Of a stretch of 64,000 nucleotides of DNA, positions 1-56,231 are shown in pieces (position 1 is the first letter of the stretch; the number at the start of each line of letters is the position of its first letter). Made by a program: the position numbers and the translations under genes. The stretch is taken from contig CAJINV010000003.1 of assembly GCA_905178155.1 (NCBI GenBank), forward strand, positions 1,483,557 through 1,547,556, given 5' to 3'. This DNA is from Amoebophrya sp. A120 (taxonomy: Eukaryota > Protista > Dinoflagellata). The notes under the pieces were generated by a model that saw only the letters and a program-made list of their open reading frames with translations, was not told where the DNA came from and ran no database searches.

Positions 1-301
1 AAGTTTGCCATGTTTTCGTCGCCCCCGCAGCAAGAACATGAGCTAGGGCGGAAGAAGGAAATTTCTTTCGAGAAACAACAACGTAAGATTCTCCTTGATT
101 ACGAAAAAGGTAAGTACAACACCCAAGCGACTTTCGGGACCCATGACGGCAAGATCGTCGGGCGGCTGAACCAGTTGCTGGAGAAGCAACGCGGTAAACA
201 ATCTGTTGCGCAGACTTCTGCCTGCGGTGGTTCTGCGAGCAGCTCCTCTTCGTCTTTCCAAAATAACCCGCAGCAGGCGCACCACAGACAACGCTGCAGC
301 C

Positions 302-563
302 TATCAAATGTAAAAATGTCTGGGTCCGGAACAAAACAACTTGTCATGCTAAATCTGAATCATGTAAAAACCTGTGTTGCATGATTACCAAAAGCTGTCC
401 ACTTTTGACCTAATCGAGAGGCAGTTTCTCATGCACGATAGGCATGATAAAACTCTCACAGAATCTGTCATGCTATGTCCCTCGTACCAGACCTCGCGGG
501 CCATGGAAAACCTGCATGACAAGTCTGGCATTCTTCCAGACCCCGACATTTTTGCAATTGATA
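302..563. mobile_element. Introner element, family A (MITE-like, TIR-bounded)
   Basis: Starts TATCAAATGTAAAAATGTCTGGGTCCGGAA and ends TTCCAGACCCCGACATTTTTGCAATTGATA (about 30-bp imperfect TIR). The body closely resembles the copy at 38773. The flanks CAGCC/CGACC do not form a TSD. Confidence 0.9.
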
Positions 564-1296
564 CGACCACCACGACGACGATATTCGGACTGGAAACCAC
601 AACAACGACAATCGCACCGGATGCGCCGTATCCCAACAAAGGTAGAAGTGGTTTTTGTCTATGCTGCTGGTTCTTGTTTGTTTGCGTATATATTCTGTGC
701 ATAGAAGATATCATGGCGCAAGAACTGTTTGCCGCTGCCGGCTATTACTTATGTAGCAAATAATTATTTTCGTAAAGGGAAATCAGAAATCAAAACTGCA
801 CAGATATGCTCCTGACAAAGCCGAACTACTTTCCGGACAATTTGAAACACGAGAACATCATGGTCCCGCTGGAGGCGATGGCCAGCAATCAGCCCACCGT
901 GGACTACCTCTTTGGCTACCGGTACCACACCGATGGGGAAGAGGGGTACCTGGCGCAGGCGGGGAACCTGCGGAAAATCATCTACCGAAACGTATGACTT
1001 GCTCAAACGTTACAATCTCAAACGTTACAATAGAGTCTGGAATTTGTGTTGCATGATGGGCATGACAGACTCGCACAGCGTTCCACCTTTTGCAATACAA
1101 ATTTTCCCAGATTGTAGTGGGGTTTGGAGCTCCGGAACTTGTCATGCGCAGCCCTATGAGAGTTGGCTAGATCATGCTCATCATGCAAGACAAATCTCAG
1201 ATTCTATTGTAACGTTTGAGATTGTAACACCCGAGCGGGTTATAAAACGACCCCCGGTACGGTGTGATGAACGTGATCAACGACCCGCGGAACGTG
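564..1296 (+). pseudogene. Three-exon fragment of an unrelated gene lying between two family A introners
   Basis: Exon 564-641, GT-AG intron 642-803, exon 804-992, introner 993-1244, exon 1250-1296. These join in frame: TTTTTIFGLETTTTTIAPDAPYPNK-DMLLTKPNYF...GNLRKIIYRN-DPRYGVMNVINDPRNV. No resemblance to metacaspase and no stop of its own. Confidence 0.6.
993..1244. mobile_element. Introner element, family B
   Basis: TAT...ATA ends. Long TIR (GTTACAATCTCAAACGTTACAATAGA.. at 1009, reverse complement ending 1228). TSD AAACG at 988-992 and 1245-1249. Removal restores the frame. Confidence 0.9.
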
Positions 1297-1385
1297 TATC
1301 AAATGTAAAAATTTCTGGGTCTGGAAAATGCAACCTGTCATGCTAAATCTGAAGCATGCAAAAATCTGTGTTGCATGATTACCAA
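1297..1385. mobile_element. Truncated family A introner (left end only)
   Basis: TATCAAATGTAAAAATTTCTGGGTCTGGAA...GTTGCATGATTACCAA matches the first about 90 bp of the copies at 302 and 38773. No right TIR. Confidence 0.85.
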
Positions 1386-1386
1386 C

Positions 1387-3064
1387 CAGCCACACCACCA
1401 CCAGCAGGCGCACCACAGACAACGCTGCAGCCACAGACACGTCCTGTCGGGAACAAGATTGGCGCAACAACTACATCTCCGGTGAGCAATGCCGCACTTG
1501 CTCCGTCCACACCCGACGAGCAGAGTAAGACCTCGTTCACAGCGACCGGTAGACGAAAAGCATTCCTGATTGGTATCAACTACTACGGGACGCAGGCGGA
1601 GCTGGCGGGCTGCGTGAATGACGTGGAGAACATATCTAGCCTGCTGATCCGAAAATTTGGTTGGCGGCAGAGCGAAATCCGCACGCTCGACGACGACCGC
1701 GGCCGCAGCTACCCGGCGGTGCACCCCACGCGGCAGCGCATCCTGGAGTCGTTGCAGTGGCTGGTACTGGACGCGCAGCCCGGGGACACGTTGTTTCTTC
1801 TGTACTCCGGCCACGGCGCCCAGGAGGTGGATCCCAACGGATACGAGGAGGACGGAATGAACGACACGATTCTGCTATCCAAGAAAGAAAACTGTGTTAG
1901 TGTAGATGTCTACTTGGAGTGATAGCATGACAAAGCTTTTCTGCATGACAGAGAAAGCCCTCTGGAGTGCACAGCTAGCACATGAAAATACACGCACATC
2001 GAAATAAGAGGACTTCGTGGTTATCTGGCATGAGTAAAAATGTAAAGTGTTCGGCATTTAGTCCATTACAGGCTTGCACTTCTATACACAGTTTTTACTG
2101 TCTTGCATATCTGCCGGTGGATTTTGCGGAGAACGGCATGATCTCGGACGATGTTCTCACGGAGCTCTGCGTCCGCCCGCTGCCCGAGGGCTGCAGTTTG
2201 ACCTGCATCATCGACGCCTGCCATTCGGGAACCGCGCTGGACCTGCCGTGGACGTGGCAGCCGGGCCTGGGGACCTGGCGAGAGGACTGGAACCCGTTTT
2301 TCACGAAGGCGGACGTGCAGATGTTCTCGGGGTGCGCGGACGCGGAAACCAGTTCCGACGGGGGCCGCGATCTGTACGGCCGCCGCGGTGGGGCGTTGAC
2401 AACCGCCTTCTGCGAGATTTTTGCAGCCTCGTCGCAGACCCGCGGGGCGGGCATCGGCTACGATGAGCTGCTGGAGCGGTTGCTGCAGTCCATGCGCGTG
2501 AACGGATTCTCGCAGACTCCGCAACTCAGTTCGAGCCAGGCCTTCGACCAGCGACAGCGCGTCTTCGCCCCTTTTGTTGTACAAAATGCGAGTTCTTCTT
2601 CGTCGCCGAGGCTGCTGCCGCAGCAGAAAAAGATCTGCAGGAACCTCAACAAGAATCCGGAGTACGGTCTCGTTTTCCGCAGAAAGTTCCCGCCGCAGCC
2701 GGCGCCACTCACCGGGTCACCACTGGAGTCGATGCTTATGGACCTCGGTATTGTCCTTTGGTGCCTTTTTTTATTCACGAATGTCGTGCAAGATACGAAG
2801 AGTTCCTCAATTTTTTCACGTCTCTAGAACAAAGTAAGTATTTCGTCGAGCAGGAGTTAAAAATGTTGAAAGTTTCAAATTTTTTACCCCGCATTATCAG
2901 GTATGTTGGTGTTACAAGATGCGGTGGCGGAGGAAATCGGGGGTGCTGTGGTCGACGGTTTGGGGGATGTTTTCGGCGGCATGGGCGACCTGCTGGGCGG
3001 TGCTGGGGACCTGCTGGGCGGTGCTGCGGACGACGTCGCTCAGGACATCGAGGAACTTTTCTAA
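1387..3064 (+). CDS. Metacaspase (peptidase C14B); 5' end uncertain, possibly extending to the ORF at 10-301
   Basis: RRKAFLIGINYYG, LAGCVNDV, LLYSGHG (catalytic His) and IIDACHSG (catalytic Cys). Removing introner 1876-2109 plus one TSD gives DGMNDTILPVDF. GT-AG intron 2748-2900. Last exon ends DIEELF-TAA at 3064. Confidence 0.93.
1876..2109. mobile_element. Introner element, family E, in metacaspase
   Basis: TATCCAAGAAAGAAAACTGTGT ... ACACAGTTTTTACTGTCTTGCATA imperfect TIR. TSD TCTGC at 1871-1875 and 2110-2114. No GT-AG register exists. It interrupts the conserved ILPVDF motif. Confidence 0.9.
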
Positions 3065-4080
3065 ATCGTGTTTCACAGGAATGAATGCAAGCTGATTTGG
3101 TGGGCACTCCACTGTTTACTACGTCCACGTCGTACATTGAGCATGACAGGAAGCGCTAGTTGTGTAGCTGTGCGGTATTCAGTTGATGCTTCCTTGCTCG
3201 CTATCGTGTGGTGGAAGCGTGCTGTACTTAATGTCGTTTCTTGCATCGTGTCGTGCTCGTGCGGCATGTTGAAATATCGCTGTACTTCTACAACGTGGCA
3301 TGATCGTCATCCAAATCTTCTTTGAGAGCAGGCGTCGCGTGTGCAAACCTTCAATTGACAACCTGTACGAATGGATGCACAGCGACATGTAATAAAGAGG
3401 TTCTTCTAGATGAAGTAAATGATGTAAAATACTTGAACATGACAAACGGACACACATTCATATGTTTGAACTTCACCGACGAGTTTCGGTATCTAGATCA
3501 AATAATATTATGGTAAAGCACAGCTCTCGCTCTCAGGAAGTGTGCCGATGTCCGTTCAGTAATTATACCGTAGGCTGGGCCACGACGCTCTATGATCAGC
3601 CATGAGAACCAGGCTGCAGCTGGTGCATGGTTGTAGATATGTACTAGAATTGGAGACTTTTATTTAGTTGAACTTGGTCTTGGACCCTAAGTCGCCGATG
3701 TAGGACGGAGGAGAAGCTGCAGTGCCTTCCTAGCCATCGATCATTCTCAGTCCTCAAGTGATGAAACGTAGTGATTTATGACATAGGTGAACACAATCTG
3801 CCTTCGATGCACACACACCCCCAGCAGGAGCCCTATAGGTTCCACCTACTTGTGTGTCTACAAGAAGAGCCTTAGTTTCCCCTAGGCCTTCTCCAATTAT
3901 TGATTCCCATATGTAGCCTCGTACTGTTTATTTGCTTTATTCTGTGCGCATGCACCCACGCAAAACCTGTGCAGACGTCAATAAACTTTTCATCTCGACG
4001 ATGAATTGTGTATGATTTACCCCGGAAGGAATTAGAAATTTCCCCTAAGCGTACATATCTTTCGAAAATCGTAAAGGAAA

Positions 4081-16482: not shown

Positions 16483-17370
16483 GTCCGGGCCCGAAAGAAA
16501 AATTACGGGATACAAGAGGAGCATCATTCAACTTTTTTCTCGTGTGCATTTTCCGACAACAGAATCGGATCCGATTCCGTTCCATATCCCATGGCAAGAA
16601 AGGTGCAGTAGTCTCTTGCACTTCGCAACATGATTAAAACTGAAAACAAAAATGATATGTCACTCACGTGACCTCATTCATATCTCGTCAACAAGGAGAG
16701 CTTAAACATATTCGCGCACTTTCCTTGCTGCTCTGCATGTATCTATGTACGGAATTTTTTGAAAGAGTTAGAGTGGATCGTCTCAGCGATGATTTCGCAG
16801 AAGCCACTGCTCAGGCGTTTCATGATAAAACAAGGAAATATGACTTGGACGATTGAAGTGCGGAAATCGCATTTAGACACCACTTATATCAGAATTCGCA
16901 TCGTCACTCGGGACGGATTCGTAACGCAGACAGGCACAGTCGCAGATGATTTTCTCGAACTACTGCACGGGTGTAGTCGTGTTGCCTCTGAGTCTGATTA
17001 TCAGATGGAGGCTGGAAATCGAAATAAAACCTTGACTCCGTGTCTTTCGGTTATGTGATCCGTGCGTGTTGACTGACATTGATATAAATATACCGGTTCG
17101 TTTTTTGTGTTGGCTACTACTGAGTATTAGTGCCAAAGAAGCTTGCAACACTTGTTTTTTGCTTCTCCTTGTCGTAGTATCATCATGTCCACCACGTGCG
17201 GCAAAAGCTCTCGAATTAGAAGTGAAGTCGTCCCACGCAGAACTTCGATAGGAATCAGGATTGCCTTTCGAGAAGAGGAATTGGATTGAGTGCTGGCGTT
17301 AATTGTTTGCGTTAAGTACTCGATTGAATCGAGCCTTGATGTTCGATTGAGTGCTTCGTCTTCATTTGCT

Positions 17371-17580
17371 GACCTCGGCGGAGATTGGGAAGCTCCGCGG
17401 AGGTCGGGGAGGTCAGCAACCTCCGCGGAGGTTGGGAAGCCTCCGCGGAGGTCGGCAACGTCCGCTTAGGTCGGCAACCTCCGAGGAGGTCGGCAACCTC
17501 CGCGGAGGTTGGGAAGCTCCGCGGAGGTCAGCAACCTCCGCGGAGGTCGAGCAGGTCCGCGGAGGTCAGCAACCTCTGCT
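17371..17580. repeat. Tandem array of about 10 palindromic units (about 19-20 bp; core ACCTCCGCGGAGGT)
   Basis: Repeated GGTCGGCAACCTCCGCGGA / GGTTGGGAAGCTCCGCGGA variants, directly visible in intergenic DNA. Confidence 0.9.
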
Positions 17581-18075
17581 GGGGCAGCTCCCGTCCGTGT
17601 TTCCGGTCGCGCTTTCTCTTTTTTCTCATGCATTTATTGGGGAGCCCCAGGCCCAGGTCCAGCTCGTGCTTGCGGAAAACGAGCGCCCCTGTATTTTGTT
17701 GTGTGTGACTTGGCTTCAAAATGTTTTCGAGTTTGAGCGGGTCGCGAAAGGCGGGTGACTGTAGTAGCCTGTGTTGAAATCAGGGGTGGTGGGCCGCTGT
17801 GTGTCTCAACAGAGTTTCATAGTGCTTTCGAGTTTTGACTGTGAAAGAGTGGGCAGTTGTTAGTCGTGGCCGGGACAGAGTGTAAGAAACAAGATAGAAG
17901 ATGAAAAGTGAAAGAAGTAGCAGGAGAGGGGGACAGGTCGTGTCTTCTTCGTCACTGGTTTAGTCTGCTTGATGAGAGACGTCGACATCGCATTGACCAT
18001 GATGATTCCCATTATTGTTGCAAAAGAATGCAGTGCAAGCCACAGCTTGAAATTGACAGCCAGTTTGAAATCAGC

Positions 18076-27525: not shown

Positions 27526-30500
27526 ATGCGTACTATCGGAAGGATTGGGCTTGAGGCCCAGTACAACGCGCGAACCGGCTCTGCAGTGAAGGCGGAGCAT
27601 GTCTGGTTCGTCCGTTCCATGCTGGCGTTACTGACAGCCGCTGCGGTTTCGCTTTGGGATTTCGTCGTGCCATATTTTTACTTCGAGCTGTTCCTGCCCA
27701 CAGTTGGCCGCTATGCACTTACCGAAGCGTGGGTTGCCAGTGGGGCCTTCTTCCTCTGGATTAACGTTTTCAGTCTCATCCGGACCGCCGGGCTCCGTAG
27801 CGAGACGCTTAATAAGTGGCACATACACGATTACAAGGCCCGCATGGCCGGTCGCGGCTGGACCGTAGAAGCAGAGGCGGGGGATGTTGGCACTGTTAGC
27901 CACATATCTTCCGCCGCCAGGAGCGATGTTGTTTTCGCGAGCAGCGAAGTAGAGGCGGCCAAGACGACGTCCCGAAAAAATCTACGCCAGGAGAAATGGA
28001 CGTGGAGGCAGTATTTGTTTCAGAGTCAGGGCGCAAAGAAAGCTTTTCTGCCAGTTTTCGTCTACATGTTGGCGATATTTCTATTCCACGAGTTCGTACG
28101 CAAGAGGCCACCGCTAACGGAGAGGTACCCGGATAAATTCCGTTGCCTGGCGGAACTGGGTTTCGGAGTGGTTGCGTACGTATGGGCTCAGAGAAATTCA
28201 TGTCTAGTACCATGTTCGAAAATTTAAATTTCGCAGTTTTCGAATAGCGCCAATGGCAAAACATTGCGCGCCTCCTTTGCTTGTGCAAGTTGCCCAGCCA
28301 CGGAGCTGCTGCCAGAGTCGAACCGCTACAGTTCTGCAAGAAGTAGCGACGGCAGCGCCGGCGCCGCGCTTTTTATTTCGCACGTTAAGCGCTTCGGCCC
28401 TCTGGGTTATGACCTCACTCCTGGCATCCTGCTCTGTTGTGGTCGTCGCCCGGGCACAGGCCTGCCGCCCACGTTGGGGCCTTTGCCCGAAGAAAAAACT
28501 GGAGCAGTTGCACTGGTCGCCGGCTTGTGTTTCTCGGTCTTAGGTGTTTCGGCTCAGTTTGGTGGCTCTGCGTGTTTTCGGTTTTCGGCGGTTTTGTCGG
28601 CCATCGGGGGCCGCGATTTGGGGGCAGGGCATAGGGGTTCTGGCCGCCGGGAGCGTCTGTAGTTCGCCCCTCTGAGTGGCAGAGCGACACCTCTACAGAC
28701 GGCAAGCATTCACGATCGGCACTGGCACTATGAAGATTGTGGCTAAGAAACCAGCTGAGTGGAGTGCGTTGCGAACCACTTTAGGGCATGTTCTGAATAG
28801 TGAGGGGCCCGGCTCCGGTTTTCAGGGGGTGCGCTCTGTGGTCCCCTCGCGGTGTGTAGCTGCAAGGCTTTGCCGGAAGGTGGCTGCCCGAGCCCTCCTT
28901 CCGGCGCCCTCCAGGCATTCTCTTGTGGGGTGTTTTAAGTCGTCGTCGATGTGGCGCCACGCTAGGGCCAGCTCGGAAAAGGAAGGGCATTAGGTCCGCG
29001 CCCGGCTTCGCATAGGCCAGGGCGCAAGAGGTTTCGGGCCGTGGACAAGCAAAGCCAACAAAGCTGAGCGCCTTCGCCGTGGTTCGGCAAGCTGGTTGCC
29101 CTTCGTGAAGTGAAGCGCCTCAACTCCGGCCATTTTTGTAAAACCCGCCCCCGACTGCGAGGTGGCTCGAGGCGAGACAAATGACACGGCCCCACGTGGA
29201 TGCCAGCATAGGCAGGCTCCTCCCGCTTCGGCCTCTGGGGCAGGTAGGTCTGCAAGGGTTGAGCGGCCTCAGCTCAGAAGGGGGCGATGGGCTTTGCCTT
29301 CAAAGCTGAAGCGCCTCGGGTCTGGCCATTTAGAAGAAAGCAGCGGGAGGGCCGGGGCCGTTTCCGGGTTGGGACGAGGGGCGCCTGGGTTCCGAAGAAT
29401 GTGGCGGAGGTTTGGAAGGAGGGGGTCCAGGCTCCGGATGAGGGCGCTTGGGCTGTGGAAGAAGTGGTCTGGGTTCCGCGTGAAGGGGGCCGGGGCCCAC
29501 AGGAGAAGACCTGGCTCCGGGAGTAGGCGGCTGAACTTGTAGAGGAGGTGGTCCGGGTTGGGAAGGAGAAGGCTCGGGCCCCAGGGGAGGTAGCGGGGGT
29601 TGGGGGAGGAGGTAGTTGGGACATCTGCTGGCGCTAGTGCAAATTGTTGGGGATGAATCGTTTTCGTTTTGGATTTGCGTTCGACTCTTCCGGCTACACC
29701 TTGCAATGAGTCCAGGCAGGGACTCCTTGCAAGGACTCCTTCGAAGGAGTCTTTTAAATTTACGCACTTGAATTTATTGCCATTGGCAACAAATTCAAGT
29801 GCGTAAATTTAAAAGACAGTAAATTCAAGTGCGTAAATTTAATTATGAAGAGAAATAGTTGAGACTCTATTGAAAGAGTCATTGCAGTGAGTCGTTCCAG
29901 TGACTCTTTTAAATTTTCACACTTGAATTGTTACCCATCGGGGGTAGCAAAAAAAAGAGTGCTGAAAGCGACTCGTTTTTCGAGACCAATAACAGCCCCA
30001 ACAAATTTTCACACTTGAATTAATTTCCACCAGGAGGAGTCGCCTTCGTCAGTGGCGAATAGATTTTCAGTTTACAATGGGCATTTTCACCTCTAGGTGA
30101 GAGGCGAAAGCGCTGTCGCCTCTCACCTAGAGGTGAAAATCCTCATTGGTAACTGAAAAGCTTTTCAGTTACCAATGGGGATTTTCGCCACTCGGTGAGT
30201 GGCGAAAGCGCTTTCGCCACTCACCGAGTGGTGAAAATCCCCATTGGTAGCTGAAAAATGTTTCAGTTACCAATGGGGATTTTCACCAGCCGGGGGCCGG
30301 CGAAAGGCATTTACACACTTGAATTTCTCAGGCTCTAAAAGAAAAGCGGCGTTTTTCTTTTAGAGCCTGAGAAATTCATGTGTGTCAAATTCGATTTCTT
30401 CAAAAAGTTCAACCTTTGGCCGCCGTGATCCGGAGCTGGCAATCAAGCCAGCCCCGACGGTCGGCGACCAACCGCCTTGTTGGCGAAAGCGGATTGGTTC

Positions 30501-32345
30501 AACATTTACACACATGAATTTCTCATGCTCTAGAAGAAAAACGCCGCTTTTCTTTTAGAGCCTGAGAAATTCATGTGTGTCAGATTTGATTACTTGAAAA
30601 GATTGAACCTTTGGCCGCCGTGATCCGGAGCTGGCAATCAAGCCAGCCCAGACGGCCGGCGACCAGCCGCCCTTTTGATGGAAGGGGATTGGCTCAACAT
30701 TTACACACATGAATTTCTCAGGCTCTGAAAGAAAGACGCCGTTTTTCTTTCAGAGCCTGAGAAATTCATGTGTGTCGAATTTGTTGGCTTCGGAACCTCA
30801 AAGCCGTGGTGGGCACCTCATGGACTAGGCAATGGAGCCAACCTCGGCGTTCGGGGATCAAGCGGCTCCGGATCGAGGGCCGGCTTGTTCGAAGTCCACA
30901 AAAGAGAAGCTCCAGAGTTCTGGAAGAAAAACGGCGCGTACCTTTCAGAGTTCTCGAAGCCCCCTTTTCGGGGCCTTGTTGACTTTGGAAGCTGAATGGG
31001 GTTCGCCGGGGCCGGGTTTTGGGCGCGTGTTATAAGATTCGCAGAGGGTTTCGAAGTTTGCGAATTTTAAATTTTCAGAAATGGACTCTCACATGAATTT
31101 CCGAGAGCCTATAGTACGACTTCTTGATGTTCTGGATTCACGTACTTTTTCTGCACCAAATTCCGCTAAAAACGCTCTGTTCGAGGAACCGTCTCGTGGA
31201 CTGGTGGGTGACCACGACACAGCAGCGCAACAAGACGCTGGTGCTCACAGCGTGGTGGGGCCGTGGGACAACGGCGCGCTCTCAGGATGAAGACCGGGAA
31301 AATATTGAATCGTCTGGCAAGAAAAACCAAGTGTGGATCATGTGGCGCGGAAGAAGCAAAACGACAACGAGGAAATCAAGTGAAGAGGACCACAACTCCT
31401 GTCGGGGAAGCACAGTGGTCCCTAGGTCGGTTCCGGCTGGCACCACAACGAGAAGTAACAACGCAGTTACACAACTCGTGGAGAAGAACAAGAAATTCGA
31501 TCAGATCATGCAGATCGGCCATGATCATGTGAGCCTTGGTGCCCAGGCTACTATTTGCCGCTCCTTCCAACCCTCCAATCCACCGGGTAAGGTCAGCAAG
31601 TGGCACTCGCGACACCATAGTGCGGCGGCGGCGGCGCTGTGGCCGGTGGACACGGTGCACCACGGGCTGTTGGACGGTTTTCTGCAGGTCGCAGTCAACA
31701 TTGCGGTGCAGCAGAAGAGCTTTTTGTTTTTCCCGGGCAGTTATCAAATGCAAACATGTCTGGGTCTGGAAACTTGTGATGCTAAAATGTGGATGAGGAT
31801 GATGGAAACACTTCCGACTGCAGCCCACCATGACAGTCCGCAGGGGAAACTGCGTTTTTGCATGACAGCACAGATGGCTGCGGCTTTTGTCGGTTATGTT
31901 GAGCTAGCATTACAAGTTCCAGCTTCCCAGACCCAGACATATTTGCATTTGATAGCAGTCTTCCTAAGCACGACTTCACGCGTTTGCTGCACAATGTGCT
32001 GATCACCTTTCTCTTGACCGAATCCCACTCCGGCCTGGATGCGCCGTTTTCGCTGCACCGCGTCCTGGGTAAGAAGTTCTACGTATGAAATGCAAATGCA
32101 TCGTACTAGTAGAAATCGCATGACAAATTCTCTCAGCATGAAAAATGAAGTTTGTAATGCGGATTGAGGTTAAGAAGGAGATTTGTAATGCATGACTGGG
32201 ATTATTACGAGTACGATACTTTTGCACAGGATACTACGGCGGCGCTTGGAATCATGACGCGCATCACGCGGGCGGAAACCGTCACCTCCAACAGTTCTTC
32301 TGCTACCTGGACTGGTTCTTCAAGCTGGACGAACAACCTGCGTGA
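27526..32345 (+). CDS. Fatty acid hydroxylase / sterol desaturase family protein, interrupted by three introners
   Basis: After removing elements 28181-31113, 31742-31954 and 32084-32233 (each plus one TSD) the protein reads VAYDFLMFWIHVLFLH...WHSRHH...ESHSGLDAPF...FYGGAWNHDAHH...YLDWFF, i.e. the family His boxes. Stop TGA at 32343-32345. Confidence 0.88.
28181..31113. mobile_element. Giant (2933 bp) introner with about 64-bp TIRs and internal cargo
   Basis: Left TATGGGCTCAGAGAAATTCATGTCTAGTACCATGTTCGAAAATTTAAATTTCGCAG aligns with the reverse complement of the right end, TATAGGCTCTCGGAAATTCATGTGAGAGTCCATTTCTGAAAATTTAAAATTCGCAA. TSD GTACG at 28176-28180 and 31114-31118. Confidence 0.9.
29734..30781. 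repeat. Cluster of palindromes and a 195-bp hairpin-containing tandem repeat inside the giant introner
   Basis: 27-bp arms at 29749-29775 and 29791-29817. Chained hairpins at about 30060-30300. Units start at 30308, 30503 and 30698, each with GAATTTCTCA(G/T)GCTCT...AGAGCCTGAGAAATTC. Confidence 0.9.
31742..31954. mobile_element. Introner element, family A
   Basis: TATCAAATGCAAACATGTCTGGGTCTGG ... CCAGACCCAGACATATTTGCATTTGATA. TSD GCAGT at 31737-31741 and 31955-31959. Confidence 0.93.
32084..32233. mobile_element. Introner element, family C (150 bp)
   Basis: TATGAAATGCAAATGCATCGTACT ... AGTACGATACTTTTGCACAGGATA. TSD CTACG at 32079-32083 and 32234-32238. It is the reverse-orientation homologue of 34014-34163. 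Confidence 0.88.
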
Positions 32346-33040: not shown

Positions 33041-35648
33041 ATGTCCTTGTACAAGCGTGTTGGAGGGCGCGGGCGCGGTAAAAGCGCCCAGCTTGCGGGT
33101 GACCTGGATCTGCCGAAGACTGCGGGCTACGTCTTGCAGGACGTCTTCCCGGACAAGGACGACGATTCAGTGCAGGCCGTGCTGGCTGCGTACCGGCAGA
33201 AAGTGGCAGCGGAGATGAACGACGAGGAGGACGCGGATAGTCAACCCTCCCCAGACGACGACGACGACCACGGTTCGGATCCCAACTATTATCAAGTCAA
33301 CGAAACCGCCGCAGACCACGTTTTGGTCCTCTCGAGCGTGACCCGCCAGCTGCGCGAAAGTCTACGATGCCGCGGGGAGCTGACTTTCTTCGCGTCCGCG
33401 AAGTTGCACTTCCACTCCTCGGTCGCTTGGCTGATCCTCTGGTTCGTGTTTGCCCTGCAGGGCTTCATTCTTTTCAAGCTCCGGGACATCACCTCCTACT
33501 ACAGCGGGGACTTCACCGCGAAGCTGGTCGGTGAGGAGCGCGGTGTCTGCGCCAACGTGGGGCACTTGAAGACGGATCTCGACGCGAACGCTCTCCTCCC
33601 CCCGGCCGTGTGGTCCTGCGCCCCCCCGCCGCTCGACTACGCATCGCACTGGAGTAACCTAGACACGAACCAGGACGGGGTGTGGTCCCTCTCCGAGGCG
33701 GAGGCGACCGATAAGACGCTGCCGCGGTCGAAGTCCAGCCTGCTGTTTGAGCACTTTTTGGGAAAGATTCGCGACCAGAAAAATCCGGACACAGGGGAAA
33801 AGATGTGGGAGGAGCAGAGCAAGCAATTCACGGTGATTCCGAAAGAGGCGTACGTCGGCGACAAAGCCCTCACTTTACTGCAGAAGGACATGCTGATTCT
33901 GTGCCAAGTGCTCGACGCGAGGTTGTGCAGCAACCTGGAGCTCGACGGGCATTTACGGCCGTTGTTTCCCGACGCGAAGCACCCCAGCCAGCGGATCGCG
34001 AAATGCGAAGACCTATGCTCTGCAAAAGTATCGTACTCGTACTAATGGGAATCAGGCATGACAAATCTGGTTTCCTACCCAAATCTGCATTACAAATTCT
34101 AATTTCCTTCCTGATACAATTTGTCATGCGATTTATACTAGTACGATGCTTTTGCAATGCATAGGACCTAGTCAAGAGCCACTGCGACTTCTTCGGCGGC
34201 GAAACGTACAAAACGTATCAGGTCCGCCACGGCGAGCTTTGCGGCGAGTACCAGATCCGCCAGATTGTGGGAAACGGGGCTATCAAAAGTAAAAATGTCT
34301 GGGTCTGTCAAAAGTAAAAATGTCTGGGTCTGGAAACTTGTAATGCTGGGTGGCGTCTCATGATGAGGCTACGAATACTGGCTCAGCATGGCAAGTTTCT
34401 GAGCTCCTAGGTGTTGCCTATTCTGCATGACAAACTGCGTCTCTGCATCACAGAAAAACGGGGCTCTTGGGTAACGTGCATGACAGATTTAAGAGTCATG
34501 CCAGACAAGCATGACAAACATGAATTCTTCCAGACCCAGACATTTTTACATTTGATAGGAGTGCGGGAGGCCCAATTCTCCGAGGTGGTGCGCTACAACA
34601 ACAAAGTGGATGGGGTCACGACAATTACCTTCTCCATGTTCCTCGCCGTGATCCTGTGCCTGTGGCTGATGGTGCTGCTCAGCGAAATCAAGAGCGCGCT
34701 GCGCATGGGCCTGCTGCTGCTGTTTTTCCCCGTCGCACAAACGCCATCGCCTGCGGAGGGCTCCTCTTCGCCGGAAGACCAATCATACGGAGGTTTCAGC
34801 ACGAGCTACGCTGCCTACGCAGCGCCGAGGCCCAAGGCGGTGCGGCACCACACAACGCCGAAAGTAAGATGGAGGGCGTCTGTTTGTGTTGAGTCAAATT
34901 ATGCGAAGTTTTCATTTGATTTTGAAATATATAACTACAAAACCACGAGTTGGATATCAACAGCACTTTCGTAAAACCAAAACAGGAATGGTCAAAAGAA
35001 AGATAAATACATCGATAAAACCAGATCAGTGTGTACACCAGTGGGGGAAAAGCGTTCCATATCCTTGCCACTTCGAGCGTCCTCCACAAGCTTCAGCTAG
35101 TTTTCTTCGTGTTTCTGCCAAGGATGTTCATTCTGGGTCTGCTGATTGTCGTCGGGACCGAATTCCTCTTGTCGAACTTCGCCTACATCGACTTGATCCT
35201 CAACGCAGTGGCCCTCGGGTTTTTAGTCGACGTCGACAAGATTGCGTACGGCACGTTCTCGAGTCGCGACCGCCGGCTGCTCTTGAACAGCGTGAAGCCG
35301 CTCCGGTTTTCGGGGACCAGAACCGAAGGACGGTCCTGGCAAGCGCTGCGGTACCGGTTTGCGGACGCTTGCTCCCTGGACCACGGCATTTTTTCCCTTT
35401 TCGCGGCCGTCGTCGCCATCGGGGCCGGCGTGGCCCTGCACACGCAGTTCGCGCCCGGGGGCTTGCGGGACGTGGCGCACGCGCTAAAGTGCTTCTGCAC
35501 CATGGACGGGGGGTACTGCCTGTCGAGTCGCAAGTTCCAGGCCAACGCCAATAATCAGATCGTGCCCTCGGAGGACTCCAGCGCACTAGTAGACAAAATG
35601 AAACTGTTCGCGGGCGGTGCCAGCACGGCGCTGGAGGAAGCTTGGTGA
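33041..35648 (+). CDS. Multi-pass membrane protein with an EF-hand-like loop, function unknown
   Basis: Hydrophobic segments, DTNQDGVWSLSEA EF-hand-like loop, Cys-rich region, DLILNAVALGFLVDVD. The frame is restored by removing introners 34014-34163 and 34281-34557 and GT-AG intron 34864-35024. Confidence 0.8.
34014..34163. mobile_element. Introner element, family C (150 bp)
   Basis: TATGCTCTGCAAAAGTATCGTACT ... AGTACGATGCTTTTGCAATGCATA. TSD AGACC/GGACC. Removal gives CEDLVKSHC. Confidence 0.9.
34281..34557. mobile_element. Introner element, family A, with a tandemly duplicated left TIR
   Basis: TCAAAAGTAAAAATGTCTGGGTCTG occurs twice at the left end. Right end CCAGACCCAGACATTTTTACATTTGATA. 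Diverged TSD GGGGC/GGAGT. Confidence 0.9.
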
Positions 35649-36385: not shown

Positions 36386-39300
36386 ATGAAGCTCTCGGTG
36401 GTCGACTGGGTGGAGCGGTTCGGCCTGGGGCTGGCCCAGTTCAAGGTCATTCTCACGAGCGGGGGCATTTGGATGGCTGACGGTGCAGAGCTGCTGCTGA
36501 TCTCCTCTGTGACGAAAGCGTTGGCTGACGAATGGTATGAGTGTGAAATCTTCGGGAAAAGATGATGGATGCGCAGCTATGAATTTGTTGATAATTTCCA
36601 TATGTTTTCCGTTTCCGGTGTTTCCGTGTATGAGTTGTTCTTTTTGATGGAAATGCAACAAAACACCCCCACCACTCAGGGACCTGACTGCGGTGGAACG
36701 CGGCTCTGTGGTGAGCATCGTGTTTATCGGGGTTCTTTGCGGGAACATGCTTTCCGGCCACCTCGGGGACCAGTTCGGACGCAAGATTCCTGTTCTTGCC
36801 TCCTACATCGCCATCTTCGTGTTCTCGCTCTTCAGCGCGATGGCAGTGGACTTTTACATGCTAATCTGCCTGCGGTTCTTTGTTGGGGCCGCGTTTGGGC
36901 TTGGACAACCCTCGGCGGGGGCGCTGGCGGCCGAAGTGATGCCGATGGCGTGGCGAATTTTGCCCCAGGTGATGGGCCAAGCCATGTTTCCCATCGGAGA
37001 AATGTACAGCGGCCTCCTTGTCGCCATCGACGACCCACAGATGAGGGAGCTGGATTGGCGGTACTTAATTCGGATTCGATTCAACTTCAGTACCAGCCCG
37101 GCGCATTGAACAATCGTGCTGCATTGTTCTTCGTTGGTTTTAATAGAGATCATAGATACGACATACTAAGAAAGTAATGCGAAACTACACAGGTGGCTGA
37201 TCACCATGGGAGCGCTGCCGTCACTGATTCTGGGTCTGTACGCCTACTACGAACTGCACGAATCACCGATGTGGTTGAAAACGCAGCCCAACCGCGAAAG
37301 CGAAGCCGCCGAGGTACTTGGCAGCATGCGACGAGCGAACCTGCGATGGCGCGTCGGCGGCACGAGTTTGACGGATCTGCTGACCCCAACGCGGAGTCGC
37401 GGCAAACACGATCAACTTTACGCGGCTGTAGAGGGCGGGGGTGGGGGCGACGGCGAGGCGGCGGCGGACGAGGAAGAAGTGTGGCACGGGCCGATCGAGA
37501 TTGCGTCTACGAAGATCACAGGCTCTCCGGGTAGCCCCGCTGACAGATTGCAGGATAATTCTACTACGGGCGACAACAACAACAAAAACACCGCCTCGCT
37601 GGGTTTGCTGCGCAAGGTGTTTTCGTACGAGTACGCGAGCAGCACGATCGTACTCTGTTGGACCACCTTTACCCTAAACTTTGTGTACTACGGAGGTTTG
37701 TACGCGTTTCCGCAGCTGCTCGAAGGCATCGGCGACACCCTGACGGTCTCCCCGGCTGTTTCGCTCGTGTTGGCCGCGGTGTGCGAGATTCCGGGTTGCG
37801 TGATCGCTTTGTTGCTCGGGCTGTACTGCTTCCGCAAGCCCGCGCTGGTGCTCTCCTTGCTGCTGTGCTGCCTGTCCACGGGGCTGTTCATCGGGGGCGC
37901 CAGTTTGGTGGCGAAGGCGGAGACGAAGGAGGTCGTACAGGCGATCGCGGAACCGGACGTGCCCGGGTATTCCCCGCCCGTCCCGGGCGTGGATTGGGAA
38001 GAGCCAAGTACCAATAAAGCCGCAAACGGGTTGTCCTCGGGGAAGCTGGTCGGAAAGACGACGGCGTCCGCCGGGGCCGATTCTGCTCCTTCGACCCCGG
38101 AGGTTGTCGCGGAGGACCAGAGCAGACGAGGTCTCGCGCCGGAAGATGCGTCGGCAGGAACGAGCACAAACACGGACGGGGGGCCACCTTCCGCGTCGGC
38201 AAGCATCTCACCGCCGGCAGCAGCTGCAGGGCCCGCAACGAGGACCCCAGAAAGAACGACCGAGCAGCCGCTCGTGGGTTCTCCCGGACGAGATGCAGAC
38301 AGTGTACCTGTGGCTGTGCCGCCGTCGAAAAATGGAGGGGAAAGTCCAACGCCTACGCCGCCAGTTGCAAAGCCGCGCCGAGCTCGCAAGGACGGGGACG
38401 CAAGCGATGCAGATAAAAATAACAAAGCGACGAAAAACATTTGGGACGAGAAGACCCAGAAGTTTCGATCGAACAAAGAGCCCGCACCAAAGGACGCAGC
38501 CGCAGCAGATGAAGGGAAAAAAGCAGAAAAGAAGAGTAAGAAGCCGAAAAAATACGTGGCCACCGTTGCCGGTCCTGTTTACAAGGGGCAGAACAACTCC
38601 ACGACCGCGAATTCCGCCGAGGAAGGGGAGAATGAAGGCAAAATAAAGGTACAAGACGCGGCGTCGAACAGGGGGCAGATGCAGCGTGCTACACCTGCTC
38701 CAAAATCTGTGGAGGAACAGCGAATCTCGGACACGACTTTGGCGGACCGTGCCTTGGTGCAGGAACGGACCATATCAAATGTAAAAATGTCTGGGTCTGG
38801 AAGATTGGAACTTGTCATGCTAAATCCGAAGCATGCAAAAATCTGCGTTGCATGATTACCAAAAGTCGCCCAGTTTTGACCAAGTCGGGAGGGAGTTTCT
38901 CATGCAGGATAGGCATGAGAGAGATCGCACAGAATCTGTCATGCTAGGTCCTGCATTCCACACCTCATGGGTCATAGAAAAGCTGCATGACAAATCGCCC
39001 AGGGCCGGGAGATGATGGTGATGGCACTTCGGTGTCCGCCTGACCTACCTTCCCTGCGTGACAGCCATCTGCGGCCGTTTACAAAGGGGGAGGCAAAGTG
39101 TGCCGCACTTCTGTTTAGCATGACAAATCGCCCATTCTTCCAGACCCAGACATTTTTACATTTGATAGACCAGTTGGCTCGTGCAGTTTTTCAATTTAGC
39201 GATCCCGCAGCCGATCGTGACGAAGACGCTGGCCAGCCCCGGTTTGAGCTGGAGTAGCGACGCGCTCGCTCCTTACACTCGACAGGACAGTAAGAATGCT

Positions 39301-40264
39301 GGCCAGCTTGTTCACCTCCAACACGAGGAAGAGCATGATCATGCACAGCAGCACATACCTGTTACCTTTCTCGAGACCGGTGCAATCGAGACGGTGCACC
39401 ATAATTATGCCGGTGATCAAGTCCATGTCGCGACCAGTCGAGAAGATCAGCGACGGCGCGCACGAGGGGAAGACGACCAGGATGATGGCATCATAAGATC
39501 AGGAGAACTTCTGCAGCAACCCGGCGAAGATGCTTCTTCTGTCTCCATGGTTTTGTCCGCGCAGCAAAAAGCCACAAGCAAGACGGAGGTTTCATCAGGG
39601 CGCGTGTTGACGGACAGCGAGGCTGTAATTGGAGATCATAAAACTACTTCTCAACAAGCCACCGACTCGTCCACCGACGGTGACGATTACAAATTGCTGG
39701 CGAATTTTTTCCTGCAGGCCGGACTGTTTGGCAACAAGATTTGGGTGCAAGTCTGCTTTGTGCTGATCTACCTCTACTCCGTCGAAGCGTATCCGACGCA
39801 GTACCGCAATTCCGGCGCGGCGGTGTGCCTGGCAGCGGGGCGCATCGGGGCCATCAGCTGCCCGCTGATCTTATGAACTGCAAAAGTATCTTACTCGTAT
39901 AAATGCGTTACAAATTTTCTCAGCATGAGAAAGAAAATTTGTCATGCTGATTTACTTTAAGAAAAAAATTTGCAATGCAAGACTTGCATTTATACGAATA
40001 CGGTACTTTTGCACAGGATAAATCTACGAACTGCTCCCGCACCAGTTCTACTTTTTCGTCATCATGGCCTCCCTCCTGGCGATCAACTGTTTTTTCTTTG
40101 TGTTTTTTCGCCTGCCGGAAACCGCCGGCCAGCCGCTCGCTCCGGACGACAGTTCAAAGGCGAGGCAGGGCTATACCAGTCTTCTGTCCGTTCCGTTTGC
40201 GTTTTTCATGGCGACGGCGGCACCAGAAAAAATACTTAATGCCAGTAGGTATTCAGAAGGATGA
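36386..40264 (+). CDS. MFS transporter, SV2/SVOP-like (sugar transporter family)
   Basis: IWMADGAEL, GHLGDQFGRK, CLRFFVG, ELHESPMWL, YSVEAYPTQYRNSG, AGRIGAISCP, LPETAGQPL. GT-AG introns 36535-36679 and 37061-37192. Introners 38773-39167 and 39872-40020. Confidence 0.9.
38773..39167. mobile_element. Introner element, family A, with a 116-bp internal insertion
   Basis: Perfect 30-bp TIR TATCAAATGTAAAAATGTCTGGGTCTGGAA. TSD GACCA at 38768-38772 and 39168-39172. Confidence 0.95.
39872..40020. mobile_element. Introner element, family C (149 bp)
   Basis: TATGAACTGCAAAAGTATCTTACTCGTATAAATGC ... GCATTTATACGAATACGGTACTTTTGCACAGGATA. TSD GATCT/AATCT. Removal gives CPLIYELLPH. Confidence 0.9.
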
Positions 40265-53147: not shown

Positions 53148-54015
53148 ACAAAATGAAAACGTCGAAACAGTTGATGTTCACTAGATAGAAGACGGTCTGC
53201 TTTATTTCCATGTCCTCCGATAGAAATAGAATATTGATTGTGTGTGATTGTATATGTATTCATCATCGAGATGCCTGGAAGTAATGATCGATCCATCGTT
53301 TCAGGAGCGAGAAATTGCTGATTGCTCCTCCCGCATAGCCGAGCTGATCGATTTCCAAAGAGCTGGATGGAAGCCTCGGAGCACCATCGGCGTCGGCGGC
53401 CTCAAGGAAATGAGCCTCAGGGGTTTGTGAAGTTGAAGGAAGCTGCAGACAGATGGAAATTGATGGCGTTGGCACTATTTGCGTCTCTATCTAGACTATC
53501 ACGCCAGTCACTCTTCATTTCGAGACTTCTGACAATTCAAGTTCCAAATATTGACCTTCAAAAATCGACAAGCAGTGAGAAGCCACCCACTCGGTCACTT
53601 TTTCTTGTGTGCGAATTTCAAGCAAAGAACTTGACTTTCTTCGAGATCGTTGATTGACTGTAGACGTCTTCTACTTCCTCTCGCCGTTGCTAGTTTCTCA
53701 CTCTATAGGTATAATGCAAATGTTGGCGCTCCATTGTGGAAAGAGCTTGCGTGGTGTCGCCGCGACCTGGCTAAGGATGGAATGTGACAGTGCGCCTACT
53801 TGAGCGACGCTGGTCGCCGTTTCGTGCGTGGCTGAGGGATATGGTATTGGAGTGGTAGACTGCTCTCGAGGGCGAACAAAAGCTGGCGAGGGGCGTGCTA
53901 ATGCTTCTCCAGCCGCGCGACAGTTCCGGAGAGTGAGAACGTTTGCGACTGCAAGAGAGTTTTGGAAAACGAAGCCGCTGGTTGGAAGTGCACGCACCAA
54001 GTGCGCGCCTGTTGG

Positions 54016-54316
54016 TATCCTAAGCGAGTAAAAACGTCCCCACCCCAGATTTGCAATTACAGCAGGAGCGTTTGATGCAATGCGCACCCCCACGAGACGA
54101 GAGGTGTCTGGAGTCGTGTTTGCTAGTTTGTAATGTTGTAAACAGGAGATGGCTTTGCGATGTGACTGCGTGGGCTCGCTAACCTAGACTAAGGCTGCAA
54201 TGTAATTAAGGACTATACGCCAGGGCTGCGCGACCTCCTTTTAGAGGCAAAGCTTCTAGATTTGCATTACAAAGCTCCGAGCTTGACTATGGGACGGGGA
54301 CGCTTTGCATAGGATA
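54016..54316. mobile_element. Family D-related element outside any recognisable gene
   Basis: TATCCTAAGCGAGTAAAAACGTCCCCACCCC ... GGGACGGGGACGCTTTGCATAGGATA. TSD GTTGG at 54011-54015 and 54317-54321. Interior similar to 49821-50099. Confidence 0.8.
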
Positions 54317-54642
54317 GTTGGAAACTTCCCCACCGCAACCTGAACGCAGCGGGAGGTGAACGGGCTGAAGCCTGACGCACTGGGTGGTGAGCGTCCAAGA
54401 AGCGGGCGTTGTGGTGGTGCGAGGAAGGGCGTGTATTCTGCATCAGAGCTATGTATTGCGCTCCTTATCACAGAAAGCTTCTAATTCCAAACCTTCGAAA
54501 AAATACAAATCTCAGGTATGATAATCTATCCGGGCCTGCAGTCAGTTGCAGGAGCGGCGACATGATTCAGCAGACCAACAAACCATCAGTGGCGGAGCGT
54601 GCGTGGGCGCACGACAATCCATCGGCTCGATACTGCAGCACG

Positions 54643-54772
54643 AGCCTGATTCCATTAGTCTGATTCCACTCGTAAAGCTGATTCCAGCAGGCGGATTCCA
54701 TGTTTTAGTCTGATTCCATCAGCCTGATTCCAAAAATAAGTCTGATCCCGTAAATGCTTAAGTCTGATACCA
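54643..54772. repeat. About 8 short repeats of CTGATTCCA with variable spacers
   Basis: Directly visible, immediately upstream of the direct-repeat copy at 54782. Confidence 0.8.
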
Positions 54773-55289
54773 TCGACGACCGTAATGATCGATCCATCGT
54801 TTCAGGAGCGATAAATTGCTGATTGCTCCTCCCGCATAGCCGAGCTACGTGCGCCTGCTTTTGCGCTGCGGTTTGTGCCCACTGCCGCAATCGGTTACCC
54901 CGTTTGCGGTAGACCTGCTGGCAGCGGCGATGATGGGGACAAGGCAAAACGAAAAAAGTCGCTTCACAAATTTCAGCCACTTGAAGTGTTTCTTGGACAA
55001 CGCGCACCCACTCAGCCGCGAGTGCGAAAATAGATTCAAACTACGTATGCGAACTATATCAAAGATGCAGCCGGCGCGCAAGCAGGCAGTGGGCGTCCGT
55101 CTCTCGCACATCATTCGGATGTGCTTAGCAGTTGAAGAGGCGGATGACTTGAAGGTCGGCGCTACCTTACTCCCAGGCGGCGAGGGGATTCTGATGAAGA
55201 AAGCGGTCGGCTTCTTCATCGCTGCATGGTTTGCCATGCTGCGTTTGGACGACATCGGTTCAACTAAATGGACTCCGCACTAAGTTTTC

Positions 55290-56231
55290 GTGGACGCGCA
55301 GAAGCTGCAAGTACTGACTGAGCGTAGTGAGGAGATTATTAGAATTCTGGAGCAGGTGCGGGGCGGTGATCGGTCGGCGAAACTCACACTGAAACAGATA
55401 CAAAGTTTTGCGAGTCTCTACCGGCACTGTACGCAATGCCGGCGGCAGTTCTTGTTTTTGGCTCGTGAATTCGATAACTGGAGCCGGCCGGGCGTCTTTC
55501 CGCGCTTAATCGCCAGACAGGGTGAGAGAAGTCGTCTCCAGCGGCAGGTCGAGCTTTGTACCTTTGCGGCCACCCAGGCGCCCCCTCTTGTCCTCAAGCA
55601 GAATCTTGTCGACAAACCAATTTGCCACATCTACACGGACGCGTCGTGCGATGACATGAAGACGCTCAATTCATGGCTCAAGGCGGGCCGGAGGACCGGG
55701 CTTGAGCGGTTTAACATTTTTGTCGGCGGTTTTTTGTACATTAGCGAGGGAGATGTGGCTGCTTTTCGAGTACAGCTCACTACGCTGCCGGATTGGATGA
55801 AGCAAGTGGAGATTACCTTGCTGGAGGCGCTTGGGCCGCGGATTGCAGTCGAATTCTGGTCGCAAAAAATCAAGGACAAGTTTGCGCACATTCACATGGA
55901 TAACTTGGCGGCCGTGTTTAGCCTCGCGCGGAATTCGAGCAAGAATTTTTATGTGGCGCAAGTTAGTCGAAGTTTTCATGATTGCACTTCCCAGTGGGGA
56001 ATTGAGTGGTATGTTAGTTGGATTAGCACTCTTCGGAACATCGCTGACGTTTTGACTAGAAGGGAGCGGCTTTCTCTTCTTGAAGCCGCGTTTCAGGGTG
56101 TTCCTGTTTTTGACATCCCACAGTCCTTTTTGATCGAGCATGAATTTTTGTGGGGTGATTATGAATTCAGACGAGTCCCTAGGGCGACCCTTCTTGAGGG
56201 TGGTGATTTCACTGCCCCAGGGAGGACATAG
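55290..56231 (+). pseudogene. RT thumb/connection plus DIRS-type RNase H fragment (no RT palm)
   Basis: LKQIQSFAS, HIYTDAS, ITLLEALG, IHMDNLAAV, WISTLRNIADVLTR carry the D-E-D-D RNase H residues. No YxDD motif upstream. Confidence 0.8.

Follow-up and report, generated by a model that had tools for sequence, protein, structure and literature searches.

A Transcribed, Non-Productive Three-Gene Chimera with Breakpoints at Introners in Front of a Metacaspase of Amoebophrya sp. A120

Introduction

Can introners, the mobile introns of Amoebophrya, carry exons of one gene into another? The question is raised by a locus at the start of a 64,000-nt stretch of DNA from Amoebophrya sp. A120 (the window), in which a cassette of unrelated exons, bracketed by two introners of one family (family A; copies A1 and A2), lies in front of a metacaspase protease gene. 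It has been reported, in the available text of PMC7789003, that introners of the Amoebophrya genome have inverted ends and are bordered by short direct repeats. A sequence-only reading of the locus had proposed that a segment looped out between two such introners and recombined into an introner resident in the metacaspase, and that introners thereby act in exon shuffling. The locus is a real, recent-looking chimera of three genes (31/31 and 43/43 identity), transcribed and non-productive, with breakpoints at introners. Mobile introns likely mark break points of gene scrambling, here with a broken gene and not a new fused protein as the outcome.

Evidence from beyond the window consisted of proteins and of assembled contigs from public sequencing runs. 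Thirteen public runs were listed, none recorded as RNA, and six were compared (X1, X3, X4, X9, X10 and X11). X1 is a DNA run and possibly the source of the window itself, hence not independent; X3 and X4 come from one sample, which differs from that of X1, and their RNA label is guessed, though their contigs lack four introns (RNA-type contigs below); X9, X10 and X11 gave matches to introner sequence only. Contig depth does not give copy number, as the tool itself warns, and the contig pieces listed are incomplete: X1 has no listed piece over the joint between A2 and the protease, but joints verified in RNA, such as that between exon 3 and A2, are likewise unlisted in X1, so a gap proves nothing.

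Structure of the Locus

The pieces of the three genes follow one another on the plus strand. The 5' part of gene U (1..270, frame 1) belongs to an open reading frame (protein P0050) that starts 53 codons upstream of the window. It is followed by R31 (271..301), the left copy of metacaspase exon-1 sequence and a remnant of a 44-bp target duplication, and by A1 (302..563), a complete family A introner whose left terminal repeat abuts the target exactly. Then come the right flank of A1, CGACC, with the threonine-rich exon 1 of gene X (564..641, frame 2), a canonical GT-AG intron (642..803), gene X exon 2 (804..992, frame 2), a family B introner (993-1244) with the second copy of AAACG (together 993..1249), and a fragment of gene X exon 3 that ends in ACGTG (1250..1296). 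The right side is formed by A2 (1297..1385), an 89-bp 5' stump of a family A introner, by a 3-nt filler or microhomology joint (1386..1388, with ACCA repeated at 1381-1388), and by native metacaspase exon-1 sequence (1389..1432), the right copy of the duplication, which ends at an introner-free CAGCC. The remaining metacaspase gene (Peptidase_C14) occupies 1433..3064, with an introner at 1876-2109 and a GT-AG intron at 2748-2900. The inserted fragment measures 1,084 bp, from the left end of A1 to a point inside A2, and its site is free of introners; the right copy of the 44-bp duplication is whole, and the left copy is cut to 31 bp.

Much of the earlier description stands, including the three foreign exons in frame with one another, their GT-AG intron and family B element, and the repeat 271-301 = 1402-1432, which is exact (31/31, E 2.5e-8 within the window). 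The placement of the cassette in the metacaspase 5' region was right in that the foreign exons lie in exon 1; the sequence to their left is not metacaspase, since 1-270 is P0050, unspliced and in frame 1.

Introners A1 and A2 and Their Relatives

A1 carries 33-nt terminal inverted arms, 85% complementary, which fold into a hairpin (z -6.1), and its flanks CAGCC and CGACC, as described before, match at three of five positions, both mismatches being transitions. Unrelated flanks would give this pattern by chance in 1.9% of cases, and a match of 3/5 or better in 12%. Besides A2, five complete family A copies were found in the window. The claim that A1 is the only complete copy without a target-site duplication did not survive: the copy at 34281-34557 (minus strand) likewise has 3/5 flanks, and among the 13 complete TAT..ATA elements of the window the flanks match 5/5 in six, 4/5 in four, 3/5 in two and 2/5 in one (15 candidates were considered; an alternative end for element 44636 and a weak candidate at 56397 were dropped). 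The family B element shows a 5/5 duplication, AAACG. The similarity of A2, the truncated second copy that had been described, to family A is confined to 1297 to 1385, and A1 and A2 agree at 81/90 positions (~90%), with a longest exact run of 20 nt.

Other members of the family have irregularities of their own. The terminal repeat of the copy at 34281-34557 shows a 25-bp tandem doubling. In the family A introner at 38773-39167, which lies in a transporter-like gene, two perfect 17-bp repeats (38985-39134) enclose 116 bp of foreign, GC-rich sequence (39002-39117), for which no source was found within the window and no match in Pfam. A further introner family of about 150 bp is present at 32084-32233, 34014-34163 and 39872-40020, ~80% alike and in both orientations.

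Native 5' End of the Metacaspase

The metacaspase matches Pfam Peptidase_C14 (E 1.7e-16 and 4.9e-10); the translation of 1386-1874 is 100% identical to protein P0001, recorded for Amoebophrya sp. A120, in which the catalytic His153 and Cys209 are intact. A second A120 metacaspase is P0002. A 96-nt contig of X1 matches 1389-1431 but continues upstream with 53 different nt, the last 30 of which, translated manually, are open in the protease frame and read S-S-C-V-S-C-S-Q. The motif C-x-S-C-x-[QE] occurs in ~6e-5 (~1/15,000) of random 30-nt stretches of the window, and the looser C-x-x-C in 1%. The closest orthologues, P0005 and P0008, start with MGNLCSCLQ and MGNCESCFQ (clade support 96 in a quick tree that covers 29/49 matches); P0003 starts with MGGCFSCFE, and P0007, of the sister clade, lacks the motif. 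By its frame and motif, this flank is taken to be the native first exon of the protease; with 0 matches in the window, it lies outside. Because this native flank stands upstream of 1389, 1389-1432 is native protease sequence and 271-301 its copy. The native letters at 1387-1391 are AGGCC, so the CAGCC found there, separated from the end of A2 by one base, arose with the joint and is not the copy of the target site for which it had been taken.

It has been reported that a Met-Gly start with nearby cysteines is linked to myristoylation and palmitoylation (PMC10896300, available text), and the acylated type I metacaspase MCA4 of Trypanosoma brucei, as cited there, shares this start and the nearby cysteines with the orthologues. 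Acylation of Amoebophrya metacaspases is predicted from this N-terminal motif only; unlike MCA4, the A120 copy in the window has lost the N-terminal acylation-type part. A match to the orthologue N-terminus at 38558-38596 (E about 3-4) was rejected as an off-frame chance match in the transporter-like gene. A metagenome scan with P0001 gave two distant loci at 32-35% identity, which are uninformative. The C-terminal part of P0008, the orthologue from strain A25, diverges from P0001, P0005 and P0003 past the catalytic domain; this may be an unspliced intron in the annotation.

Transcription and Coding Outcome

Whether the cassette is skipped or included in RNA had been named as a check, and the RNA-type contigs of X3 and X4 show it included and spliced. 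A 406-nt contig present in both runs consists of 274-299/567-639/802-987/1245-1365, where the piece 567-639 is deduced from the joint table and from the lengths, which sum to 406; it bridges the GT-AG intron of gene X and enters A2 from exon 3. A1 is removed in both runs by a joint of 299 to 567, which skips 267 nt, that is, 5 more than the element. A1, the GT-AG intron, the family B introner (987 joined to 1245) and the element at 1876 are spliced out, and A2 is retained, with 1245-1365 in one contig. A contig of X3 (1356-1431) spans the joint between A2 and the protease with 0 differences, and the joint between U and R31 is covered without gaps by a DNA contig of X1 (1-299) and by RNA-type contigs (1-300/301). 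RNA depths are 32.7, 30.4 and 28.5, with 63.3 (fitted) for the shared part, and the X3 depth bins fit exactly without a skipping isoform, one model value being fitted. From the assembly and the similar depths, we infer a single transcript from U to the protease.

The mismatched flanks of A1 (297-301/564-568) pin its splicing: CAG on the left is kept and CGA on the right is lost, so at least three of the five extra bases come from the right flank. An introner is here spliced without matching direct repeats, its left cut narrowed to 299-301 and its right cut to 566-568, which bears on the splicing mechanism. One of the permitted cuts reads CT..AC and so corresponds to GT-AG of the other strand, a likely coincidence.

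No fusion protein results, since each of the three pieces uses its own frame (U frame 1, cassette frame 2, protease frame 3). U, which is unspliced and annotated as P0050, is open in frame 1 only; read on into the cargo, this frame is out of phase with the exons there and meets a stop at 1344. The three cassette exons are mutually in frame (GC content at third codon positions 0.83 in exon 2 and 0.94 in exon 3), and their reading ends with a stop at 1306, which, like that at 1344, lies inside A2; were the cargo entered in the protease frame, a stop would follow at 813. The cargo exons are thus in frame with neither neighbour, and exon shuffling here is not productive. Of the proposed introner-mediated shuffling it holds that both ends of the fragment lie at or in family A introners. 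Removal of 302-1391, which had been expected to restore the allele, leaves stops in all three frames and does not encode the protease. A GT-AG intron at 110-273 that would bring U into the protease frame was also rejected, as contigs cover 1-300 ungapped.

Upstream of the protease domain there is a single in-frame ATG, at 1356; it lies within A2, nine bases past the stop of U, and is the annotated start of P0001. The protease could arise only from this ATG in the A2 stump, and would then be without the predicted acylation motif. After an upstream frame of 272 codons, reinitiation would be poor. It is suggested that the annotated A120 proteins P0050 and P0001 are products of a broken locus.

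Mechanism of Formation

At about even confidence, the fragment was excised at the end of an introner and inserted, through non-homologous repair, at a site free of introners, and not moved by recombination between introners. In the first step, a transposase, engaging either one end only or the outer ends of a neighbouring pair of copies, would cut at the left terminal repeat of A1, and the cut end of A1 would be joined to the target after CAGCC (1432). In the second, the right end would be trimmed into A2 and healed by the 3-nt filler and the 44-bp target copy (1389-1432). In the third, a later break would join gene U to the left copy, leaving 31 bp of it and parting the protease from its own 5' exon. 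Since A1 is spliced despite its 3/5 flanks, the cargo exons would have been joined to the recipient exon at once.

The left breakpoint, 301/302, falls at base 1 of the terminal repeat of A1, and a zone of ±2 nt round introner ends makes up 0.1% of the window and 0.7% of 1-3100. The target copy at 1428-1433 carries no introner, and the right breakpoint inside A2, with its filler and long duplication, marks non-homologous repair. A comparable pattern of insert and long duplication is seen in the family A copy with 116 bp between 17-bp repeats (38985-39134). The contig depths in X1 are 40.7 for U, 43.6 and 53.7 for the cassette and 43.8 for the protease; this similarity suggests single-copy cargo and, as a weak hint that the fragment was moved and not copied, favours cut and repair.

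Several points weigh against this account. No donor locus was seen, though no genome-wide search was made, and gene X has no relative in the databases searched. The right end has neither a terminal repeat nor a 5-bp duplication, so that clean transposition needs a second event; the 3/5 flanks of A1, a match shared by 2/13 elements of the window, fit an aged duplication and favour template switching. According to the available text of Farhat et al. (2021, PMC7789003), no transposase was found in A120, while that of Gozashti et al. (2025, PMC12130899) describes a family with putative transposase homology. The RNA evidence comes from one sample, labelled RNA by guess; the contigs, assembled from 31-letter words, give no phasing across the 31-bp repeat or across 1336-1385 of A2; and the contig over the joint between A2 and the protease has 30 letters on its left side, one below the 31-letter bridging rule. 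The RNA depth also permits a pruned native 5' tip at 0 to 24x; assemblers prune short tips. Finally, the summed X1 depth over 1405-1430 is ~1,100 against ~320 for two copies; an eight-copy model fits three downstream bins and fails at 1392-1404, and the X1 contigs, with an end at 299 and a start at 1409, deviate slightly from what two copies predict. The extra depth probably reflects more genomic copies of the short repeat sequence, or a collapsed assembly. A 39-bp tandem array is not supported as its source, no backward joint being present among the listed contigs.

Other features of the X1 contigs were noted at this locus. Over 1402-1438, contig ends suggest further entrances and exits of the repeat. 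Contigs break at 622 and 785-814 in unique cassette sequence (622-814, 785-1020), a hint of a partial second copy or a minor allele, and one contig is listed from 582 back to 300 with 4 letters between.

Template switching without a transposase is the main rival, though less likely. In this account, a single event of replication or repair with several switches (template switching at stalled forks, FoSTeS, or microhomology-mediated break-induced replication, MMBIR; or templated end joining) passed from U to R31 of the metacaspase, then to gene X at the hairpin end of A1 via CC/CAGCC microhomology, and from A2 back to the metacaspase, the flanks of A1 being its own aged duplication. Short homologies do lie at all three joints, A1 is a strong hairpin, and its 3/5 flanks with two transitions resemble those of the copy at 34281; family A also bears other switch-like scars (the 116-bp insert between 17-bp repeats and the 25-bp terminal-repeat doubling), and additional templated copies could explain the extra repeat depth. 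However, copying should keep the donor and double the cassette depth, whereas the depth looks single and no variant letters are listed for the cassette exons, which argues weakly for one copy; the switch must also land within 2 nt of an element end.

Recombination, even in a repaired form, is improbable. A circle looped out between two family A copies would have entered, by recombination, an introner already resident at the CAGCC of the metacaspase (with 1428-1432 and not 1387-1391 as the partner copy), and a later event would have replaced the 3' 173 bp of A2 by a templated 39-bp copy of the flank. This needs two crossovers between repeats of ~260 bp whose identity is 83-92% and whose exact matches run to 18-25 nt, plus the third event. 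Complete hybrid repeats on both sides, a resident target duplication round the whole insert and long, near-identical homology would be looked for; A2 ends after 89 bp, the resident element leaves no sign (AGGCC is native, 1428-1433 is empty and the claimed duplication is a by-product of the joint), and A1 and A2 share their 81/90 positions with no exact run above 20 nt. The loop-out scheme of the sequence-only reading is not supported, on the same grounds. It retains that both fragment ends lie in introners of one family and one orientation, and the end product here is indistinguishable from that of a two-element transposon followed by repair.

An assembly error, with sequence wrongly joined or collapsed at the 31-bp repeat or within A2, is quite improbable; most of that small weight goes to a mild form, where what stands upstream of R31-A1 is the native 5' exon and not U. 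The DNA run does show a third entrance to the repeat and a depth above two copies, the contigs cannot phase the repeat, and gap closing was used in the A120 assembly. On the other hand, the joints between R31 and cassette, cassette and A2, and A2 and protease are found in RNA-type contigs from a sample other than that of the DNA run, and A2 is retained while A1, the family B introner and the 1876 element are spliced, as expected of a stump. The joint between U and R31 is present in both DNA and RNA contigs, and the scaffolds were checked with Nanopore reads (the available text of PMC7789003 for both assembly steps). A plain assembly chimera through A1, which had been kept open earlier, is unlikely given that the fragment is found spliced in RNA-type contigs; even in the mild form the insertion stays real and out of frame (stop at 813).

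That the cassette belongs natively to the metacaspase, or is a shuffled domain that is productive and in frame, is largely refuted: it is transcribed and spliced, and removal of 302-1386 would bring U into the protease frame, but the orthologues lack the segment, all entry frames stop ahead of the protease domain, and the X3 depth bins need no skipping isoform.

Comparison with Known Systems

A1, the family B introner and the 1876 element resemble the described Amoebophrya introners (PMC7789003 and PMC12130899, here as below for all cited systems in their available text) in their inverted ends, in splicing without GT-AG and, A1 apart, in their short direct repeats; the 3/5 flanks of A1 may be an aged 3-5 nt repeat or unrelated sequence. 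What differs is that an element end is here a rearrangement breakpoint and that the element is spliced between unrelated exons. The main texts of these papers contain no mention of shuffling (both), of recombination (PMC7789003) or of chimeric genes and rearrangement (PMC12130899). A literature search by title, with most subscription journals outside its coverage, gave no title on introner-driven exon shuffling or rearrangement. Work on introners has dealt with them as suppliers of new introns and not as a cause of rearrangement; what is new here is a spliced introner standing at the joint.

In the alternative transposition of maize Ac/Ds (PMC4270019), neighbouring element ends move flanking gene DNA, as may have happened here; chimeric genes are formed, and non-terminal joints are healed by non-homologous end joining with 0-4 nt of microhomology (PMC4270019, PMC1592236), to which the present locus is alike. 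Composite Ac/Ds insertions have element ends and an 8-bp duplication on both sides, with the source left behind, whereas here there is one intact end, a 44-bp duplication and an element that removes itself by splicing. Of the marks of two-element transposition, the breakpoint at an element terminus is present (301/302), and a terminus with canonical duplication at both outer ends is absent. Similarly, in Pack-TIR (terminal inverted repeat) and Pack-MULE capture, gap-filling and FoSTeST, gene fragments are joined to TIR elements by template switching at short microhomology (Tan et al. 2021, PMC8277862) and are often transcribed as chimeras, like this locus. The cargo here, in contrast, lies between the right end of A1 and the left end of A2 and not inside one element; the closer Pack-TIR look-alike is the 116-bp insert in the copy at 38773-39167. 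As the locus lacks a defining feature of Ac/Ds and one of Pack-TIR, it is filed as neither.

A broader reading, which is rather unlikely, is that neighbouring introners serve as the termini of one composite mobile element, which brings the intervening exons into other genes. If true, the leading introner would splice itself out whatever its flanks and join the cargo at once, and the broken trailing introner would give a start codon; since introners number in the tens of thousands, exon shuffling by this route would extend over the whole genome and underlie the rapid evolution of Amoebophrya proteins, and introners whose flanks are unrelated would reveal it. The locus is one concrete, RNA-backed case, and suggests a screen for introners with mismatched flanks, or for stumps followed by duplicated target; as a single, non-productive case, its weight is limited.

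Genes X and U and Other Features of the Window

For gene X exon 2, no relative was found in Pfam, among candidates from a set of 5.8 billion proteins (0/8, longer proteins only), in JGI metagenomes (0/598) or in viral contigs (0/8), and the Protein Data Bank gave one match at E 0.3. Protein P0051 (E 7e-4) was rejected as a relative: it is a repetitive protein from bacteria, no stretch of it passes, and BLASTP yields no alignment. Gene U has no family in Pfam, finds itself alone among 97 candidates, and has no usable match in the Atlas.

Elsewhere in the window, a long palindromic repeat array with arms of up to 99 nt occupies 30057-30783 and 29749-29842, and partly matches the nearby 28175-28244/31050-31118. 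A GC-rich short tandem and palindromic repeat lies at 17366-17584. In addition, a sequence of 35-65 bp occurs four times within 53281-57889 (at 53281, 54782, 56874 and 57839), with 96-100% identity among the copies.

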